Shown: positions 30,660-63,986 of the stretch, one piece after another
Position numbering within the stretch: position 1 is the stretch's first letter
Layout of the letters: each line of letters starts with the position of its first letter
Assembly: GCA_026397405.1 (NCBI GenBank)
Contig: JAPLUW010000001.1
Location: 239,825 to 303,824, forward strand
DNA: 64,000 nucleotides
Direction of reading: 5' to 3'
DNA from: Candidatus Adlerbacteria bacterium
GTDB lineage: Bacteria; Patescibacteriota; Minisyncoccia; Phycocordibacterales; SBAW01
The notes under the pieces: generated by a model
Database searches by the model: none
Seen by the model: the letters and a program-made list of their open reading frames with translations, nothing else
What the model was told of the DNA's origin: nothing
Program-made: the position numbers and the translations under genes

Positions 30660-31097
30660 ATGAAAGGCATAGTGCGTTTTACAGCCGGTATTGTCCTCGC
30701 CGCAACATTGCTCGCACCTTTTTCCGCTTCTGCGCAGGCTCAGGCGGGGCTTTCCTTTGGTGGGAGGATTACTTTTGTACTTCCTTGTCTTAGTTTGCTT
30801 GGTCCTTCTGTATGGACTGTTATTGTGCCTGCCCCATTTACTAAATTTCCTGCCTATGTGTGGACTGTGGCAACGCTGCGCGGAGGGCCCCCGTCTTTTA
30901 TAATGCCTGACCTTCCCCCACCTTTTCATCCTGGACAAGAAATTGCAGGCATTGCAGACATCCCTTTCTGGTGCTGTGCTCCCGGGTCAGTTCCAACTCC
31001 AGTACCATTTAGTTGCATCTCCAGTACCTTCCCATTTGTGGTATGGCCTCCACTTCCGGGGCAGCGTATGCAATGGGCAAACCAGAGCGTAATATAA
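30660..31097 (+). CDS. small secreted Pro/Cys-rich protein
   Basis: Signal peptide MKGIVRFTAGIVLAATLLAPFSASAQA. It diverges from the T4SS-like operon. Confidence 0.4.
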   Translation: MKGIVRFTAGIVLAATLLAPFSASAQAQAGLSFGGRITFVLPCLSLLGPSVWTVIVPAPFTKFPAYVWTVATLRGGPPSFIMPDLPPPFHPGQEIAGIADIPFWCCAPGSVPTPVPFSCISSTFPFVVWPPLPGQRMQWANQSVI

Positions 31098-49125: not shown

Positions 49126-49887
49126 ATGTTGTGGAATGAAGAACAGCGGCAGGCACTTGGGTTGAAGAAAAAAGAGCAGCGGTTGTTGGACGCGCTGCAT
49201 AAAAAAGGAGTACTCAACACTATGGAGTTGGCGTTTGAAGCTAAGCTCCCTCGTGTTACGGCCATGCGGTTGCTCAAAATTTTGCGCGAGCGTGGATTTG
49301 TTGCCCGGCAAACATTGTTAAACGAAGTGCGTTGGTCGCTGGTGCGGCCGGAGCTCCACATAAAACGTTTGCAAAAAATTTTTGCCGACATGCCCGGGAG
49401 TTCTGGAAAGACCACACTCCCCCTCTCTGACGTTGCACAGGTCACTGTGTTTCGTGGAGCAGACGAGATGTACCAAACTAACGTGAAATTTCTTGCGGCT
49501 CACGCAGGCGAGCGTTTGTATGCAATAGAGCCCAGCGGTATGTGGCGACACATAGTGCAGGTGCCTGTCGAAAAGTGGTTGCATGTAAACCATCTTATCG
49601 GGCAAAAGAAAATTGTTGTGGAGGCTATTGTGGAAGAAGATTTTGAAATACAGATATACAAATACGCGAATAAATATCTTTTAGAAAGTCTGACCGGGCT
49701 TACAAGCGAACTCCATAGTATTCCCAAGGGATATTTAAAATCTTCAACCGAAGTGCTTATATTCCGTGACCAAGCACTCTTCCTCGACTGGGAACAATTG
49801 GTTGGTGTTGAAATAAAAAACTCAAGCACCGTGCATTTGCTTAAAGGGATGTTTACACTTTTAAAATCACAGAGTCGACGAATTTAG
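49126..49887 (+). CDS. TrmB-like winged-helix transcriptional regulator
   Basis: N-terminal wHTH (LLDALHKKGVLNTMELAFEAKLPRVTAMRLLKILRERGFV). Confidence 0.5.
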   Translation: MLWNEEQRQALGLKKKEQRLLDALHKKGVLNTMELAFEAKLPRVTAMRLLKILRERGFVARQTLLNEVRWSLVRPELHIKRLQKIFADMPGSSGKTTLPLSDVAQVTVFRGADEMYQTNVKFLAAHAGERLYAIEPSGMWRHIVQVPVEKWLHVNHLIGQKKIVVEAIVEEDFEIQIYKYANKYLLESLTGLTSELHSIPKGYLKSSTEVLIFRDQALFLDWEQLVGVEIKNSSTVHLLKGMFTLLKSQSRRI

Positions 49888-50126
49888 AAATTTTTATAGG
49901 TGTCCTCATTTCGGCGACTTATTTCTATTATCTGAATAGTGTCCGCACGTTTCTGGTAGATAATTCGTATACTCTGCACGCGCACGCGGAAGATATCATC
50001 AAAACCTTTCAATTTTTTAATATCAAGGTCCTGGGTATTTCCTGAAAGTACTATTTGAATCGTTTCCCGGACAGTTCCCCGCTCTTTTGGCGAGAGTCTC
50101 GCTAGAAATTTTTGAATTTTATCCAT
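49884..50126 (-). CDS. type II toxin, RelE/ParE family
   Basis: 80 aa; KKLKGFDDIFRVRVQSIRIIYQ. It overlaps the antitoxin gene by 8 nt. Confidence 0.7.
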   Translation of the reverse strand: MDKIQKFLARLSPKERGTVRETIQIVLSGNTQDLDIKKLKGFDDIFRVRVQSIRIIYQKRADTIQIIEISRRNEDTYKNF

Positions 50127-50370
50127 CCAATTTCTTCAGGGCAGCAAGAACATCCCTTCCAGAGACGCCGTTTTTGTTGATTTCTGTAAAGTCTATGACT
50201 GTTTCCCAGCCCATCTCTTCACTGTCTACAGGCATAAGACGGAAGATTGGTGTCGAGCGGCGAAAGACAGTTATAGAGTCGCCTTTGTCTACAGCATCAA
50301 TATACTTCTCCATATTTTCACGGAGTTCTTTCAAACCAACCGTAGTTTGTTTTGTAGACTTGGTATTCAT
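50119..50370 (-). CDS. type II antitoxin, Phd/YefM-like
   Basis: 83 aa, placed directly upstream of the toxin. Central VFRRSTPIFRLMPVDSEE motif. Confidence 0.65.
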   Translation of the reverse strand: MNTKSTKQTTVGLKELRENMEKYIDAVDKGDSITVFRRSTPIFRLMPVDSEEMGWETVIDFTEINKNGVSGRDVLAALKKLDG

Positions 50371-55558: not shown

Positions 55559-56932
55559 ATGGGAGAGAAGATAATGGCTGAATTGGAACAGTTGGCAAAA
55601 GGCCAAGAGACATCGTTCGATGTGCTCGATGCCCACCTTGGGCAGCCGACGCCCGTCTCGTTCGGACCGATGGTGGTCAATGACACCATTCGGTCCGATA
55701 TGGGGCCGTTCAAGAGCTTGCCCGAATACCGGGTGGTCTATCCGCAAACGGTCGTTCAAGCTCTGGCTGTGCTGGTTGCGGAATACAACGCGGCATTCGC
55801 GCCACTTGTGGCTGCTAACCAGGAAACGGACGCCGACTACAGGCACTGCTTCGTCAATGGGGCGCCGATCAACTTCGGCGTTCAGATCGACATGCCGGCC
55901 TTGCCCGAGGCGTTTCTCGCGCTTGCCGTTAGTATGTCGGTGGAACAGGTTGTCGAGATCTTACGGAGACGAATCTTCGAGATCGAAAACTCGCTGGCGA
56001 TGTACCAGCTGCTTAGGAGGCAATTTGCCAGGGGAGGAATTTCCTTCTTTGAAAGTCGCTTCGCCGACTTCATGGACACTCTTCGGCGACATACCGGCAA
56101 GCCAGTTGCTCTGCTGGCTGTCACCGACCAGAAGTACGAGGCGATGCGTAGCTCGGAATTCGGGAAGTCTCTACACGACAAGCTTCCCAAGGAAGAGTTG
56201 CTCGATATATCAGGGTTTGACGCGATGTTCAGCCCTGACGGCTTTTCCCGGCATCTTAGGCAAAACGGCGGGGAAAGTGCATACGCGCTGTATGCACGTA
56301 CGTCCGACCCTGTTGCGGTCTTGAGGGATCCCACGGTTCGTGTGGGACATGAACTTCTTGGCAACAATGAGGTTCGGCACAAGGTGCGGCGGGATGCACT
56401 GACCTTCAATGTTGATACGCCGACTGCAGAACCCTGGCATCGGCTGAATGACACCAAGATGTACATGCCCGCTATGGGTATGGGCGTCTTGCTCCCAGGT
56501 CACGTCGACCTTACAACGTTCCTGAAACGCAGCGCGACGAAGGAGTATTTCGAAGCGTGTGGGGTCGACCCTGAGGCCGTAATCGGAGGGCAAGCTGCTC
56601 TGCGAGCAAAGCCCGCACTCGGAACGTATGGCTGCTATGGCCATATCCACGGCCGTATCGGTGTGAACAAATTTGAGGGCAACCTTAATCGCGAACGGCA
56701 GCGCAGGGGCTCCTACATCCTGCAACCCGAACTGCCTCTTCTCAAGTTGGTCAATGAGCTCGACGAAGAGGACTCCTACATTGCTATCGACCGGAACTTC
56801 CTCGGTTGGAACGGCAATGGATACGACTTCCTTGGTGGATTCCGGTCACTTATGCCGGACAAAACCATGGAAGCGCGTAAGGGTCGAAATCACGGCAGCA
56901 AAGAGACCCTCTGGGCCGAAGTGGTGACCTAA
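55559..56932 (+). CDS. GC-rich 457-aa hypothetical protein, possibly a ligase-like enzyme
   Basis: A long ORF with clearly higher GC than its neighbours. I could not assign a family by eye. Confidence 0.55.
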   Translation: MGEKIMAELEQLAKGQETSFDVLDAHLGQPTPVSFGPMVVNDTIRSDMGPFKSLPEYRVVYPQTVVQALAVLVAEYNAAFAPLVAANQETDADYRHCFVNGAPINFGVQIDMPALPEAFLALAVSMSVEQVVEILRRRIFEIENSLAMYQLLRRQFARGGISFFESRFADFMDTLRRHTGKPVALLAVTDQKYEAMRSSEFGKSLHDKLPKEELLDISGFDAMFSPDGFSRHLRQNGGESAYALYARTSDPVAVLRDPTVRVGHELLGNNEVRHKVRRDALTFNVDTPTAEPWHRLNDTKMYMPAMGMGVLLPGHVDLTTFLKRSATKEYFEACGVDPEAVIGGQAALRAKPALGTYGCYGHIHGRIGVNKFEGNLNRERQRRGSYILQPELPLLKLVNELDEEDSYIAIDRNFLGWNGNGYDFLGGFRSLMPDKTMEARKGRNHGSKETLWAEVVT

Positions 56933-58137: not shown

Positions 58138-59282
58138 TGTGCCAGGGCGTTAACTAATTTTTGGCGCAAAATGGGGGCGATGGTGCTGGCAAAGTGGTCG
58201 GCTTTTTGTTGCATGTTGCCTGTAAGGAGCGCGACAACTCCTCCCATGCCTGCTGTGGCAAGGCTCTGGTTAATGTGGCTCAGGGTTATGCCACGCAGGT
58301 CGCGTGTGGCAGTAGTGTCGCCAAGTGTTGCCGTCGCCACTATTGCCTGCAGTGCGCCGTCGTGTGTGCGGACAATAGCCCCGCCAGAGGAGCCCGCCTG
58401 TGCAACAACACTGCCGCCGACAGACACAACGTCGGGGAGCCCGCGGCTGTCGAAGGCAAAAATATCTTGCACGGTAGTAAAGGCGCTCGACGCATACAAA
58501 TTCATTTCAATAGTAATGCCTTCCAAAAAACCAGCGGGGTAGGCGGCAAGTAGCACTGGCTCTTGCCTCTGCGGTTCGTCGAGCGTGACAGGGATGGTGG
58601 GGAAGTGTGCGGGGAGTGTGGCAGCCGGGTCGGTGCGCGAGGTTATGAGTAAAAATGCGTAGTCGTTTTCGCCCGTGCCAACAGCTTCGTCTGACGTTAT
58701 TTGCTTTGCGTTTGCATCGACCCACGCAGGCGGTAGGTACAGCAGTGTCGCCTGATATTTACGCGCGGCAGGGCTGCCAGTGCGCACGACGCAGTCGATA
58801 TTGCCCGGTACTATGTAGTCGCGGAGCAAAAAGTATTGGCCCACGTGTGCGTTGGTTACAATAACGCCGCTGTCGCTGACAATAACCCCGCTACCAGAAA
58901 TCGGGTGGAAGTAGCCGCCGCTTTTTGTTGTGCAGAGGATGTTAACAAGCGCAGCACGCGTCCCGTCATTTACAACGCCTGGGGGCACTGTTGGTGCAGG
59001 AGGAGGTGGTGGAGTAGGCAAAGACACTGTCTCTGCGTCGATCTTCGGCTCCGCAACCGACAGTGTCTTTGCCTTAGTAGTTTTTACTGGCAGCAGTTTT
59101 TGAGCAGTGGTGCTTGTCGCAACTGGTTTGCTTTGTGTGGCTACTACTGCCCCTGTAGATGTTGCTACAGGTAGCGGGGAAGCCGTTACGGGCGCGTGTG
59201 CAGTGACAGCCCCAAAAAGTGAGTGGAAGGTGATAAATACACTTGCAATAATGTTAGAGAAAAAGGAAAGAAGCGCAGACAT
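58134..59282 (-). CDS. secreted trypsin-like (S1) serine protease with a Pro/Thr-rich linker
   Basis: Signal peptide, catalytic His in TNAHV and Ser in GSSGGAIV. Confidence 0.75.
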   Translation of the reverse strand: MSALLSFFSNIIASVFITFHSLFGAVTAHAPVTASPLPVATSTGAVVATQSKPVATSTTAQKLLPVKTTKAKTLSVAEPKIDAETVSLPTPPPPPAPTVPPGVVNDGTRAALVNILCTTKSGGYFHPISGSGVIVSDSGVIVTNAHVGQYFLLRDYIVPGNIDCVVRTGSPAARKYQATLLYLPPAWVDANAKQITSDEAVGTGENDYAFLLITSRTDPAATLPAHFPTIPVTLDEPQRQEPVLLAAYPAGFLEGITIEMNLYASSAFTTVQDIFAFDSRGLPDVVSVGGSVVAQAGSSGGAIVRTHDGALQAIVATATLGDTTATRDLRGITLSHINQSLATAGMGGVVALLTGNMQQKADHFASTIAPILRQKLVNALAH

Positions 59283-59311: not shown

Positions 59312-59382
59312 TGCGGGATGGGAGAATCGAACTCCCGCCATCAGTTTGGAAAACTGATGTTCTACCATTAAACTAATCCCGC
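59312..59382 (-). tRNA. tRNA-Gly (anticodon TCC)
   Basis: Reverse complement GCGGGAT..TCAGT-TTTCCAA-ACTGA..GGGAG-TTCGATT-CTCCC-ATCCCGC-A. Confidence 0.9.
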
Positions 59383-59467
59383 TTTTCTATATAAATCTTA
59401 TCCTACAACGCCTTTTGCTTTTCAGCTAGCAATTTGTTCGAGCTATGTTTAGCGCATTGATATGGTC

Positions 59468-59531
59468 AAAACCGTGAAAATGTAAGAAAAAAAGACATTT
59501 TTCACGATTATAGTTGATAAAACCGTGAAAA
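59468..59531. repeat. Repeat array: AAAACCGTGAAAA twice in direct orientation, plus an 11-bp palindrome CGTGAAAATGT / ACATTTTTCACG
   Basis: Read directly from the sequence: copies at 59468-59480 and 59519-59531, inverted copy at 59495-59506. Confidence 0.5.
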
Positions 59532-59672
59532 AAGCATCTGCTGGTGTAGCTGGCAATTCTCCCATCCCGCATATGAATGATTTCACTTGACCTTCACTTG
59601 GTTGGGTATATACTATATCTACATTCGGCATTTGGCCGCGACCCCCGCCCGCAAGGGCGGGGGAACATGTTT

Positions 59673-60059
59673 TTATAGGTACAATTTCTGAAATCCTTCT
59701 TTTACTTTTGCAAAATTATCGGTATCGATCTGTCCCAACTTTGAATGTAGGCGCCGGTAGTCGATAGTACGTATCTGATTAAGACAGATGTATTCATCTT
59801 GTTCGCCAAATTGGACATGTACGTACCAGCTCCCGTCTCGTTTTTGAGTAGTAGTTGGAGCGATAAGATAAAATCCGTGTGCTAACTTTTTGATAATTAA
59901 TACAGGTCGTGAAAAACGTTCGCTTTTCCCGTTCATTTCCGAACCCACATTTTCGCCAAGGCTTGCCCACCACAAATCTCTTTCTGAAACAAACGGAGCG
60001 CGATGTTCATTATTGTGGAGTTTTTCTTTGAGCCCTATCCACTCAAAAAACCGTTTCAT
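59673..60059 (-). CDS. MazF/PemK-family endoribonuclease toxin with no adjacent antitoxin
   Basis: RDLWWASLGENVGSEMNGK..RPVLII...APTTT...YICLNQIRTIDYRRL matches the MazF fold motifs. Confidence 0.7.
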   Translation of the reverse strand: MKRFFEWIGLKEKLHNNEHRAPFVSERDLWWASLGENVGSEMNGKSERFSRPVLIIKKLAHGFYLIAPTTTQKRDGSWYVHVQFGEQDEYICLNQIRTIDYRRLHSKLGQIDTDNFAKVKEGFQKLYL

Positions 60060-60099
60060 ATAAAATTATTGTAGCACCCTGCTAATCCGCACCAGAGTT

Positions 60100-61533
60100 T
60101 TAAAATGTTGGATAGAGAACAAACGAAGGCTGGTAGTTAATTGCCTGAATATACGGCTTGCCTGTGTAGACGGCATGAACTTTTGCCATTGCAAATGTTT
60201 CTTTATACAAAAGATTGGAATGTAGCCACCCGTGCGACGCAACGTTGATAAGAATTGTGACACCTGCGTTAGACGCTTCTTTATATCCAAAAGGAGCAAA
60301 AACTTCTGAACACGCAAAAACAGCAAGGTTGGCAGATTTCCACGTAAATGTGCGAGAAGAAAAAGACTCCTCCGAAGGGACATATTCTTTATTCGCGACA
60401 ATGTCACGGATCTCTTTTCCAAATCCAAGAGATTTCAGAATAAAAATAAGTGATTGAGGGAGATATTCGCCAAATGGCATAAGGTAGTGTTTCTCCTGGC
60501 GAGCAACCACAGTGCCACTTGTTCCGTCAAAAAATACTATAGTTCCTTGTCCGCCTGGTGTTGCTTCAGAGTCGACAAGAAGAGTATTAGTTTTTTTCAA
60601 CCCTTCTAACAATGTAGTACGGAGAGCGGGTGGAAGTAACATCTGGTTTCTAAGGAAGTGGAAATATTCTGGGAGGATAATAATATCGGGTTTTTGCTCT
60701 AAAGCTGTATTTATTTTACTTGCGAGAGATTTTTCACTGGCGAGAAGTTGTGCCTGAGTGTAATAAAGACTTGGATCGAGATGTGTAGAAATAGGCACAA
60801 TCCGGAGCCCATCAACCACTACCACCTTCGGATCGATCTCGACTTTTAAGGGGTTTGGGAGCCCAAACCCTACGGCAAATATGCATATGTATATGCCAAC
60901 AAAACTGTACGAGCGGGCTCTAGAAGATATTTTTGTGTGAGTTGCGGCTATATATAGGAAAGTGCCCAAAGTTGCCGCAAGCCAGCTCAAGGCATATACA
61001 CCACCTACCTGTGCAAACCACAAAAGGCCTGGCGACGCTGCAAAGGTGTAGCCAATAAAACCAAAAGAGAAGTCAGTTCCAAATGTAGACCCCGACCCCC
61101 ACATAACAAGAGAAAAGAGTGCGGCTCGCATAAGTTCGCCGGCTATCCACAAAAAAGGGGCGATACACAAAATCCAAAAAGTTTTTATGTAGGTGCGAAC
61201 CTGCAGCGCAAAAAGGCCGACCGTGGCTGCGAGTACGAGTGCGGACAAAAACCATACTCCAAATACAGCACAAACAGAAAATACTTGGTTATATATACCC
61301 ATTCGATCGAGAGGAAGCAGGGTTAGCACCCAACCTAAGGAAGAACCAATTATACAAAACCCAAAAATTGTCCCTAGGGTAAATGACTCACGTGCAGTGG
61401 AACGAGAGAGTATATATAAAAATAACGCAAACGCCGCTGGTACCACTGGCCACCCATAGGGAAAGTAAAAACTTAATCCAATGAAGGAGCCTGCAATTGC
61501 AGCAAGAAGAAGACGAAGTAGAAAAGTTTTCAT
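60100..61533 (-). CDS. lnt: apolipoprotein N-acyltransferase-like (polytopic N-domain + C-N hydrolase domain)
   Basis: C-terminal nitrilase-fold with Glu (IILPE) and Cys (FACSE) triad residues. Start trimmed to MKTFLLRLLLAAIAG; the upstream ORF extension is implausible. Confidence 0.75.
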   Translation of the reverse strand: MKTFLLRLLLAAIAGSFIGLSFYFPYGWPVVPAAFALFLYILSRSTARESFTLGTIFGFCIIGSSLGWVLTLLPLDRMGIYNQVFSVCAVFGVWFLSALVLAATVGLFALQVRTYIKTFWILCIAPFLWIAGELMRAALFSLVMWGSGSTFGTDFSFGFIGYTFAASPGLLWFAQVGGVYALSWLAATLGTFLYIAATHTKISSRARSYSFVGIYICIFAVGFGLPNPLKVEIDPKVVVVDGLRIVPISTHLDPSLYYTQAQLLASEKSLASKINTALEQKPDIIILPEYFHFLRNQMLLPPALRTTLLEGLKKTNTLLVDSEATPGGQGTIVFFDGTSGTVVARQEKHYLMPFGEYLPQSLIFILKSLGFGKEIRDIVANKEYVPSEESFSSRTFTWKSANLAVFACSEVFAPFGYKEASNAGVTILINVASHGWLHSNLLYKETFAMAKVHAVYTGKPYIQAINYQPSFVLYPTF

Positions 61534-61720
61534 CTGATAGTTTGTATGGAATACGATAGCAGATAATTCTAGGGCGAGAGAAAATTCAAAATATTTTTTA
61601 TTTTCGAAGCCTTCGAGGGCTGTCAACAGCAGTATATTGACAAAAATGCTAAAAACTGAATAATGATAGGTACTGTCCGGGATGTCCCTGGGCTTCGGAT
61701 ACTCCGAAAGGGAGAAGATC

Positions 61721-62239
61721 ATGTACCTCAAGAACCGCCTTTGTGTCCTTCTGGCCCTCGTGAGTGCGTTCCTCGTGAGCCCGATCATTGCGCAGGCGCA
61801 GCCCCCCGTGCAACAGGCTGCTGTCCCCGACAGCGCGCCGGCATCGATACTTCCAGCGGCTCCTGGCCTTGCTCTGGCACAGGTCCAGCAGCAGTGCCTG
61901 GCGTTCTTTGGCAAGAAGGTCACCTACACTGGCAGGACCCCCGAAGACGGCAAGGACTATACGCTCGTTCTCAGTTCCGAAGGGGAGATGCTCGTGCGAT
62001 ACGACCGTCCTGTGTGCAAGGTCGCATACGAATGGCGGAACGCTAGGCAAGAAGGTCGAAATGTCACCGTCGTCTTCGACGGGCGGGCTATCCTGGATGT
62101 CTGGCCCAAGGAGCCTGCTCTGGGCATGACGATGGTCATGAGCAACGACGGGAGCAGCCTGGTCTTTCTCAGGCGATTCGCCGACTACTACGGCAACAAG
62201 AAGATAGGCACTCAGTCGGGGACCTTCCTGCGGAAGTAG
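61721..62239 (+). CDS. GC-rich secreted hypothetical protein
   Basis: RBS AAGGGAGAAG, signal peptide MYLKNRLCVLLALVSAFLVSPIIAQA, and a strong terminator downstream. Confidence 0.5.
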   Translation: MYLKNRLCVLLALVSAFLVSPIIAQAQPPVQQAAVPDSAPASILPAAPGLALAQVQQQCLAFFGKKVTYTGRTPEDGKDYTLVLSSEGEMLVRYDRPVCKVAYEWRNARQEGRNVTVVFDGRAILDVWPKEPALGMTMVMSNDGSSLVFLRRFADYYGNKKIGTQSGTFLRK

Positions 62240-63596: not shown

Positions 63597-63986
63597 TCAT
63601 GAACCACCAGAGCTGCCACCCCCACCACTTCCAGAGGTACCATCAGAAGAAGCATTGCCAGCGCCAGCACCAACACCCGCATCGGAAGAAGTAGAGGCGG
63701 CAGCAGCACCAGGACCGCCGTCAGTACCTTCACCGTTACCACAAGAACCACATGCCGTACCGCCGCCAGCAGAGCCTGAAGAACCGTTCTGCGCTGGGTC
63801 AGAAGGGCTTCCTCCGCCAGCTCCACCTGCAGGAGCATCTGCACTCGCTATAGGAGTTGAAAAAATTTCAATAAGCGAACCTTGTTTTGTGTGGACCGCG
63901 AAACCTAAGAAGAGAGCAAGTTGTGTAAGAAGCAACATGCTTTTTCCAAAAAGATGTGCTGTTTTTCTGCGAGCTTTTTGTACCAT
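63597..63986 (-). CDS. small secreted Gly/Ser-rich protein
   Basis: Signal-like MLLLTQLALFLGFAV followed by a long Gly/Ser/Ala low-complexity tail. Confidence 0.4.
   Translation of the reverse strand: MVQKARRKTAHLFGKSMLLLTQLALFLGFAVHTKQGSLIEIFSTPIASADAPAGGAGGGSPSDPAQNGSSGSAGGGTACGSCGNGEGTDGGPGAAAASTSSDAGVGAGAGNASSDGTSGSGGGGSSGGS

Follow-up and report, generated by a model that had tools for sequence, protein, structure and literature searches.

Endoribonucleases of the MazF/PemK family are the textbook toxins of type II toxin-antitoxin (TA) systems such as MazEF, PemIK and Kis-Kid, in which the toxin is co-transcribed with an adjacent antitoxin gene. In the largest toxin and antitoxin families more than 50% of the genes are solo, and RNAs have been suggested as stand-ins (Makarova et al. 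2009, PMC2701414). The locus described here lies in a stretch of 64,000 nt (hereafter the window) from a Candidatus Adlerbacteria bacterium (contig JAPLUW010000001.1, assembly GCA_026397405.1) and offers a concrete case of this kind. Its MazF/PemK-family gene belongs to a MazF subfamily (994 clusters at 50% identity) that is accompanied by a tail-to-tail small RNA gene and never by a protein antitoxin gene. The window toxin shares its fold and catalytic Arg/Thr with the type II toxins; however, it has no upstream mazE or pemI, it carries an extra N-terminal helix, and its mRNA would be single-gene and apparently leaderless.

Type III systems (ToxIN, CptIN, TenpIN and AbiQ/antiQ) combine an endoribonuclease of Kid/MazF-like fold with a small, structured and conserved RNA and lack a protein antitoxin. 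They are compact, mobile modules of which several copies are possible, and they are defined by the binding of the RNA to the toxin, as is proposed for the present locus. Their RNA is a tandem repeat array that lies upstream of the toxin gene on the same strand, is processed by the toxin and is followed by a terminator. In contrast, the window toxin belongs to PF02452 and not to ToxN/AbiQ, and its RNA is a single unit located downstream on the opposite strand with a promoter and terminator of its own. In the convergent type I systems (Bacillus subtilis txpA/RatA and bsrG/SR4, and Enterococcus faecalis par RNA I/RNA II), the 3' ends of the two genes meet at a shared hairpin and the RNA has its own strong promoter, both of which hold for the window. 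Unlike these systems, the window encodes a 128-amino-acid (aa) soluble nuclease of MazF fold instead of a membrane peptide of fewer than 60 aa, and its RNA of ~54 nt, which overlaps the toxin open reading frame (ORF) by at most 2 nt, contains invariant unpaired residues. The pemK RNA motif (RF02913), likewise a candidate structured RNA, takes its name from the pemK genes with which it is associated, but it gives no covariance match here. Judged by its genes and their layout, the window module is thus neither type II nor a ToxIN-type type III system, and is atypical for type I.

The nearest described object is CJpv3/pVir0047 on plasmid pVir of Campylobacter jejuni 81-176; this RNA has been observed, yet as far as could be verified neither a function nor a connection with MazF has been discussed for it. 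The toxin pVir0047 is homologous to that of the window, with 28% identity over residues 3-103 including the N-terminal extension (pairwise E 3e-17), and has no annotated adjacent protein antitoxin gene. The distant homologs on Campylobacterota plasmids, pVir0047 among them, are 28-34% identical, with the N-terminal extension included. CJpv3 is convergent with pVir0047, has its own -10 box and ends 5 nt past the toxin stop codon at 31038; it folds into hairpins, and the last of these, which comes within a few nt of the stop codon, is a GC terminator. CJpv3 differs from the window RNA in length (77 nt versus ~54 nt) and in its 5' part, and the pVir0047 mRNA begins with a leader of 26 nt that contains a Shine-Dalgarno-like AAGGA. 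The same convergent layout is found on Nitratiruptor and Helicobacter suis plasmids, in four of the only five toxin relatives detected on viral contigs, and in the 35%-identical paralogs of two further loci (L022 and L085; L-numbers denote fetched related loci). In differential RNA sequencing (dRNA-seq), CJpv3 was recorded as a 77-nt small RNA (sRNA; 31119-31043) "detected on Northern blot", with 16164 reads at its start site (31119, minus strand) versus 28 at the toxin start (30608) (Dugar et al. 2013, PMC3656092, Tables S5, S12).

The original prediction regarded the window toxin as an orphan and listed its conserved partner only as a GC hairpin. This hairpin is real, although it occupies 59642-59663 rather than 59643-59664, and it constitutes the 3' stem and terminator of a small RNA gene driven by a sigma-70-type promoter that is aimed at the hairpin and had been overlooked (Table 1). 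The RNA is predicted to start 7 nt past the -10 box, and its 3' end is placed by the U-run. It consists of a 5' tail ACAUU, stem P1 (59626-59629/59635-59638), a linker CGA, and stem P2 (59642-59650/59655-59663), a 9-bp GC stem with a 4-nt loop, followed by AACAUGUUUUU, whose U-run extends into the stop codon of mazF (59673-59675). Folding of the window RNA yields exactly P1 and P2 (-28.7 kcal/mol, z -3.5).

Conservation of this element was followed in 84 homologous mazF loci, used for the ORF, promoter and pairing counts, and in ~170 related loci, used for spacer homology. The block directly after the toxin stop codon is conserved in five distant loci and in 70 distinct loci, and in all the homologous loci that were read. 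On the strand opposite the toxin, the family consensus reads TTGAC(A), 16-18 nt, TAnnnT, 6 nt, ACAUU, P1, CGR, P2 and GAAUAUUUU, in which P1 has 4 bp and a loop AUUN, P2 is a GC hairpin of 7-9 bp, and the U-rich tail enters the toxin stop codon. TAnnnT stands exactly at -12 to -7 of the predicted RNA start in 75 of the 84 loci (1-7 at shifted control positions), TTGnnn occurs at a spacing of 16-18 nt in 76, and 37 have a TG extension. The two stems covary: 96% of the cells pair (slid controls, 40-56%), and in 11 of 12 pairs both partners have changed; 0 of 500 shuffles attained these values. P1 alone occurs as CGGC/GCCG, CGGG/CCCG, UGGG/CCCA, CAAG/CUUG, CAGG/CCUG and CGAC/GUCG. Outside the stems, no variation is seen between Patescibacteria and Alphaproteobacteria at the C, U and U of ACWUU or at the CG of the linker. 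A covariance model (R1) built on 70 sequences has one real match in the window (59616-59672, plus strand; 63 bits, E 1e-13). Across 85 sources (559 kb), each of its 86 matches at E <= 1 immediately follows a mazF-like gene (from Patescibacteria or Alphaproteobacteria) and is on the other strand, and in 465 kb from 80 syntenic relatives without mazF no significant match was obtained (a single one, E 0.83). The RNA gene is very probably real and has a functional link with the toxin.

Membership of a known RNA family, the pemK motif included, was considered and rejected, as Rfam returned nothing at E <= 10 for the window element bar chance CRISPR-repeat-like matches to the hairpin, and no family reached its gathering score in 11 loci. 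A closing helix between 5' ACAU and 3' AUGU of the window RNA was likewise discarded, since by eye this pairing is not conserved in the aligned sequences of other loci.

Several variations on the theme were encountered among the related loci. In Peribacteria (L049, L053, L087, L088 and L078), an additional hairpin (GUACU....AGUAC) stands on the 5' side of P1 in the RNA, and ACUUUU replaces ACAUU. A DnaA-box-like 9-mer (TTATCCACA, with at most one mismatch) precedes the -35 box of the sRNA in 16 of the 84 loci (~1 expected), at ~42-64 nt and mostly at -50 from the predicted sRNA start (L030, L036, L042, L044, L052, L057, L067, L072 and others); it is absent from the window. Synthesis of the RNA, the presumed antidote, may be coupled to DnaA or to replication status in one clade. 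Tandem arrays of two to three paralogous MazF-like genes occur in L085 (2479-3880), L022 (1726-2789), L078 (3001-4785) and L181, with identities between paralogs down to 32-36% in L085 and L022. Every array unit in L085, L022 and L181 is followed by its own hairpins and convergent promoter, and both units of L078 have an R1 match; toxin-RNA modules multiply side by side.

The toxin ORF encodes, by all sequence and model comparisons, a genuine MazF-family protein that would be expected to act as a toxic RNase. It matches PF02452 PemK/MazF at E 6.8e-14 over 106 of 109 profile positions, with a score of 52.4 bits where the cut-off is 23.1; PemK_toxin is its sole Pfam match, and it matches none of the ToxN/AbiQ, CptN and TenpN families. 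The AlphaFold2 (AF2) model (predicted local distance difference test 87.5, predicted template-modeling (TM) score 0.81) shows the MazF barrel preceded by an extra N-terminal helix (residues 2-16). In Foldseek searches of the PDB, the MazF proteins of Staphylococcus aureus, B. subtilis and Escherichia coli were the best matches (TM 0.7-0.78), and the best 50 matches listed were all MazF or MoxT-type chains, with target-normalized TM mostly 0.65-0.78. The family profile aligns best to B. subtilis MazF/EndoA (4MDX, 4ME7); in this alignment, the invariant R51 and the T70 conserved in at least 90% of sequences correspond to R25 and T48, reported in the 4MDX work to be the catalytic residues of that enzyme. 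The N-terminal helix is specific to the family and highly conserved, with F4, W7 and K11 invariant and L14 nearly so. Close homologs from Patescibacteria and Alphaproteobacteria are 55-83% identical in protein. A search of 1.84 billion cluster representatives at E <= 1e-10 yielded the 994 clusters mentioned above, and most of the best 150 listed span the full toxin length, N-terminal extension included.

The gene seems to be transcribed singly and not as part of an operon. Its -10 box lies 8 nt from the ATG, from which a leaderless or near-leaderless mRNA devoid of a Shine-Dalgarno sequence is predicted; by eye, and uncounted, a TAnnnT box likewise precedes the start codon by ~6-9 nt in many homologous loci. 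As separate observations, the toxin ORFs in L031, L046, L064, L074 and L078 (second copy) lack the usual stop codon and read 39-63 nt into the RNA terminator, and some database proteins have been extended through the hairpin by gene callers (P0088 and P0109 end ...PRGGGRG).

No conserved protein antitoxin accompanies the toxin. The earlier reading noted that no antitoxin-sized ORF lies upstream of it, and the 84 loci agree: when ORFs of at least 35 aa within 1.5 kb were clustered, no non-toxin cluster occurred in more than 5 of the 84, and only shadow frames of the toxin gene recurred. Neighboring genes vary from locus to locus and encode, for instance, a type IV secretion system (T4SS) coupling protein, an integrase, a laminin-G protein or a phasin. 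The adjacent, co-transcribed antitoxin gene of MazEF/PemIK is thus missing from the window and from the 84 loci alike. Three other places for a partner were considered. In the 40-nt gap upstream of the window toxin there is a promoter and no mazE/pemI gene, and a type III-style repeat array upstream of the toxin is rejected because only these 40 nt, with the -10 box, are available. An antitoxin antisense within mazF is ruled out, all three frames being closed by 5-7 stops on average. The original prediction had also raised an unannotated antitoxin of fewer than 60 aa or an RNA antitoxin; the first option fails, as the small ORFs (24-60 aa) in the spacer 59383-59672 are not conserved, while the second fits the conserved, covarying small RNA gene. 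PADLOC, a library of anti-phage defense systems, had no match for the module.

It is probable that the RNA is the antitoxin of the toxin, whichever mechanism applies. The high expression of the pVir RNA, the strict 1:1 co-occurrence of RNA and toxin gene, and their joint transfer on 512 bp (see below) are what a toxin-antidote pair predicts. A different reading holds that the RNA, although real and linked to the toxin, acts as a transcriptional insulator or terminator, as a stabilizer of the toxin mRNA 3' end, or as the substrate or sensor RNA of a defense system, with the toxin controlled otherwise, e.g., by its own N-terminal helix or a host factor. The conserved helix could, speculatively, autoinhibit the enzyme, and the DnaA-box-like motif at -50 in 16 of 84 loci hints at regulated rather than constitutive RNA synthesis. 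The same three observations that a toxin-antidote pair predicts argue against this reading, and neither maintenance nor transfer of an active MazF on its own would be easy. A role other than that of antitoxin is considered unlikely.

For the mode of action, direct binding of the RNA to the toxin in a type III-like manner is slightly favored over cis-antisense pairing, and is put forward tentatively. The locus would be a self-contained two-gene module comprising a MazF nuclease, probably made from a leaderless mRNA, and a convergent RNA of ~54 nt made from a strong sigma-70 promoter. The RNA, produced in excess, would bind the MazF dimer directly, its conserved 5' ACAUU and linker filling the RNA-binding groove as a non-cleavable mimic of substrate or product. 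If the element were lost or transcription shut off, the supply of this short-lived RNA would cease, and the freed toxin would cleave cellular RNA and arrest growth; the pair would behave as an addiction or abortive-infection module. B. subtilis MazF cleaves U^ACAU, and it is the closest solved relative of the window toxin; the predicted 5' ACAUU of the RNA would therefore resemble the downstream product of such cleavage. Binding and inhibition of the toxin by the RNA are suggested solely by the invariant single-stranded nucleotides, which pure cis-antisense pairing would not require and which thus favor direct binding. The unusual conservation of the toxin and of its extra N-terminal helix was counted on the same side. 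It is conceivable, though rather doubtful, that the locus exemplifies a new architecture, namely a PF02452 nuclease bound by a single-copy, independently transcribed, convergent RNA whose 5' ACAUU mimics a cleavage product, and that this arrangement applies to a large share of the 'solo' MazF genes.

The principal competitor is a type I-like mechanism, in which the RNA would act as a cis-antisense antitoxin: it would pair with the 3' region of read-through toxin transcripts, or convergent transcription would interfere, so that the toxin mRNA would be degraded, for example by RNase III, or truncated, and little toxin would be made. Toxin and RNA genes are convergent, and along the toxin strand CGCGG, not a U-run, comes after P2. 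The ratio of RNA to toxin mRNA at the C. jejuni start sites is ~600:1. Between Patescibacteria and Campylobacterota the RNA sequence differs while the architecture is kept, as expected if only cis complementarity matters. The complementarity of the RNA to the toxin mRNA is confined to a hypothetical read-through 3' untranslated region. However, the predicted RNA barely enters the toxin ORF. Pairing in trans with the 5' region of the toxin mRNA was rejected, as it is no better than in shuffled controls (mean z +0.13, 84 loci). If only perfect complementarity in cis mattered, invariant unpaired nucleotides and covarying stems across phyla would be superfluous. MazF enzymes are as a rule stable and call for stoichiometric neutralization, and known type I toxins are mostly small membrane peptides, both of which were counted against a type I-like mechanism. 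It is regarded as a possible explanation, only slightly less probable than direct binding.

Several points nevertheless weigh against direct binding and, in part, against the antitoxin reading as a whole. The convergent arrangement is the classic type I layout, and the toxin mRNA lacks a terminator of its own before the sRNA gene, so that any transcript reading through would be fully complementary to the RNA. The Campylobacterota RNAs escape detection by R1, and the precedent on pVir is hence one of shared architecture and not of proven RNA homology. Wobble pairs favor the plus strand by only ~2:1 (~18 G-U versus ~9 A-C, with the loop-closing pair excluded); the strand was assigned mainly because of the promoter and the U-run, together with the analogy to C. 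jejuni, and the U-run past P2 is short in many loci (GAAUAUUA). UACAU is underrepresented in the toxin ORFs (38 observed versus 52.9 expected; z -2.9, rank 27 of 984, in sequences that are not independent), which is a weak hint of toxin specificity, and ACAUU is not depleted in the same motif-depletion test. The gene pair, the promoter, structure and covariation of the RNA, its strict co-occurrence with mazF, the lack of a protein partner and the insertion at the tRNA are observations, whereas transcription in this organism, toxicity, an antitoxin role and direct binding are inferred.

A further consideration of this kind is CjrA/CjpT, which is said to have been described by Shen et al. in 2016 (Mol Microbiol 101:909) as a type I TA pair in C. 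jejuni. CjrA is cited as an antisense RNA antitoxin, called type I, of C. jejuni 81-176 in a passage of PMC10470494, and a passage of PMC7826846 places cjrA on pVir. In their citing passages these papers give no coordinates; CjrA may or may not be CJpv3, and CjrA/CjpT may be CJpv3/pVir0047, which would favor the antisense mechanism. If cjpT is pVir0047, the window module would be a new, distant member of the CjrA/CjpT system, and an antitoxin role would already have been shown in a distant homolog. Full-text literature searches, whose reach did not include Shen et al. 2016, did not turn up any MazF-family toxin described as having a convergent small RNA for a partner. Plasmid pVir also encodes a second Northern-validated sRNA, CJpv2 (start 25268, plus strand), convergent with the small ORF pVir0034 (NC_008770, 25228-25703), which has been dropped from the current RefSeq annotation; CJpv2/pVir0034 is an alternative candidate for CjrA/CjpT.

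If the RNA is indeed the antidote, the textbook equation of MazF with type II would break, TA-prediction pipelines that seek only protein pairs would be missing a widespread class, and Rfam would gain a new family. Under direct binding, this would cover ~1000 clusters at 50% identity in Patescibacteria, Alphaproteobacteria, Campylobacterota and phage-like contigs. The 512-bp module moves between phyla and is common in Patescibacteria, in which regulation and defense are poorly known. The cultivable pathogen C. jejuni carries a homologous module on its plasmid pVir, and transcript data on it already exist.

Table 1. Features of the toxin-RNA locus (window coordinates).
Feature	Position	Strand	Basis
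MazF/PemK-family endoribonuclease gene, 128 aa	59673-60059	-	Pfam, AF2, Foldseek
Extended -10 box TGCTACAAT of toxin gene, 8 nt before ATG	60068-60076	-	read from sequence
Predicted small structured RNA, ~54 nt, convergent with mazF	59621-59674	+	covariance model, folding
Small-RNA promoter, TTGACC-16 nt-TATACT	59587-59614	+	sigma-70-type promoter scan, 10/12 matches
Inserted toxin-RNA module, 512 bp	59572-60083	both	between tRNA-end copies
16-nt perfect copy of tRNA-Gly(TCC) 3' end, ATTCTCCCATCCCGCA; attL-like left border	59556-59571	+	repeat search
7-nt remnant ATCCGCA of tRNA-Gly 3' end; attR-like right border	60085-60091	+	junction alignment
tRNA-Gly(TCC), intact, inverted relative to orientation in L097	59311-59382	-	ARAGORN; Rfam tRNA, 75.6 bits
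Segment of unexplained origin, 173 nt, from tRNA 5' end to 16-nt core	59383-59555		without homolog in fetched loci

The module is an insert in the 3' end of tRNA-Gly(TCC). The closest relative of the window genome, L097, whose flanks share 85% and 76% DNA identity with those of the window, has neither toxin nor RNA and represents an empty site; its order is the lnt stop codon, 8 nt, the 3' end of tRNA-Gly(TCC) (which converges on lnt), 41 nt and a protease gene. In the window, 8 nt past the lnt stop codon are followed by TGCGGAT where L097 has the intact tRNA 3' end (junction alignment: TAAAACTCTGG-TGCGGAT in the window versus TAAAACTCAGG-TGCGGGAT in L097). As this attR-like remnant is only 7 nt long, the argument on this side rests on its position. 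On the other side stands a 16-mer, unremarked in the earlier reading, that is a perfect inverted copy of 59312-59327 at the tRNA 3' end (0 of 100 shuffles gave as many matches); it lies 15 nt from the sRNA -35 box, in the orientation of the tRNA of L097. The copies of the tRNA 3' end on either side and the empty site in L097 together show that the module integrated there, which supports the earlier notion of a decayed mobile element at a tRNA. Apart from the genes for toxin and RNA, each with its promoter, the insert contains nothing; with no integrase gene in its 512 bp, it is either a decayed remnant or was mobilized in trans. In L102 and L116, direct repeats of 17-22 nt from the same tRNA 3' end, 115-137 nt apart, surround GC-rich inserts, which identifies tRNA-Gly(TCC) as a recurrent integration site. 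In L015, L040 and L066, as in the window, the module is faced by the 3' end of a tRNA. A general enrichment of tRNA genes beside the module was examined and dismissed, since a tRNA lies within 3 kb in 13 of 60 loci, roughly as expected by chance for small Patescibacteria genomes.

The tRNA itself stands inverted relative to that of L097. In blastn comparisons of the window with L097, the flanks align plus/minus and the tRNA plus/plus, and a 228-bp segment (the 173-nt segment and tRNA positions 59328-59382) lies between the perfect inverted 16-mers. A single inversion between these 16-mers would return the tRNA to its place against the module, the tRNA being intact either way. Relative to the protease gene, tRNA-Gly(TCC) is on the same strand in L100, L101, L104 and L111 and on the opposite strand in eleven other relatives scanned; in this group (L097-L116), tRNA-Gly(TCC) is a hot spot for integration and rearrangement. 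A contig from a second sequencing run (L002) stops 4 nt past the tRNA-Gly 3' end, at the inverted 16-mer, which may reflect an assembly break caused by the repeat or by inversion polymorphism.

The spacer between toxin and tRNA had attracted attention for its repeats. Its length of 290 bp, the 40-nt gap (60060-60099) between the toxin ORF and lnt, which ends at 60100 (the gap being measured to the lnt stop codon), and the neighboring tRNA-Gly(TCC) are as originally described. The spacer is not unusually AT-rich, its GC content of 0.38-0.42 being the same as that of the flanking lnt (0.41-0.42). The sequence AAAACCGTGAAAA does occur twice in direct orientation, at 59468-59480 and 59519-59531 (51 nt apart), and these are its sole copies in the 64 kb at up to one mismatch. 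The core CGTGAAAA occurs 7 times in the window versus ~2 expected, and 4 of the 7 copies fall within 59473-59908. What had been called a perfect 11-bp palindrome was given with arms of 11 and 12 nt; the arms found (59470-59480/59499-59509) are 11 nt long and 91% complementary. The 173-nt segment that holds the AAAACCGTGAAAA repeats has no counterpart in any of the ~170 related loci and is absent from L097. The proposal that the repeats are a functional partner, a conserved operator or binding sites for an antitoxin is consequently abandoned, as none of the related loci has them and their place is beyond the border of the inserted module; they are left unexplained.

These data also bear on the view that the gene is a true orphan or decaying toxin, i.e., an island remnant that is inactive or neutralized in trans by a MazE-like protein, with the hairpin as a mere terminator and the repeats as regulator sites. 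The module does sit in a rearranged tRNA integration site with decayed attachment-site remnants, the AAAACCGTGAAAA repeats are locally over-represented, and the genome was inspected over 64 kb only. Against this stand an intact ORF with every family-invariant residue, strong purifying selection on protein and RNA across phyla (55-83% protein identity), a promoter and RNA conserved in every locus, which is more than a mere terminator needs, and the lack of conservation of the repeats in any related locus. A true orphan is therefore considered very unlikely.

Some features of the remaining window deserve mention. A Phd/YefM-type antitoxin gene (weak Pfam match) followed by an overlapping 80-aa ORF at ~49884-50370 (minus strand; L001 19690-20176) is probably a conventional type II TA pair. 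Sharp swings in GC content at 55600-56900, 58150-59200 and 61600-62200 (0.54-0.63 versus 0.38-0.45 elsewhere) coincide with a few ORFs, namely an Ala/Thr/Pro-rich protease and a 185-aa ORF (61682-62239) without a family match. Near the window end (63597-63986, minus strand), a 129-aa ORF with a Gly/Ser/Cys-rich C-terminal half directly follows genes for YcaO, a nitroreductase-family protein and an Asp/Arg hydroxylase (in the region past the window end; L001 3039-6463), and this group has the appearance of a thiazole/oxazole-type ribosomally synthesized and post-translationally modified peptide (RiPP) precursor with its modification enzymes.

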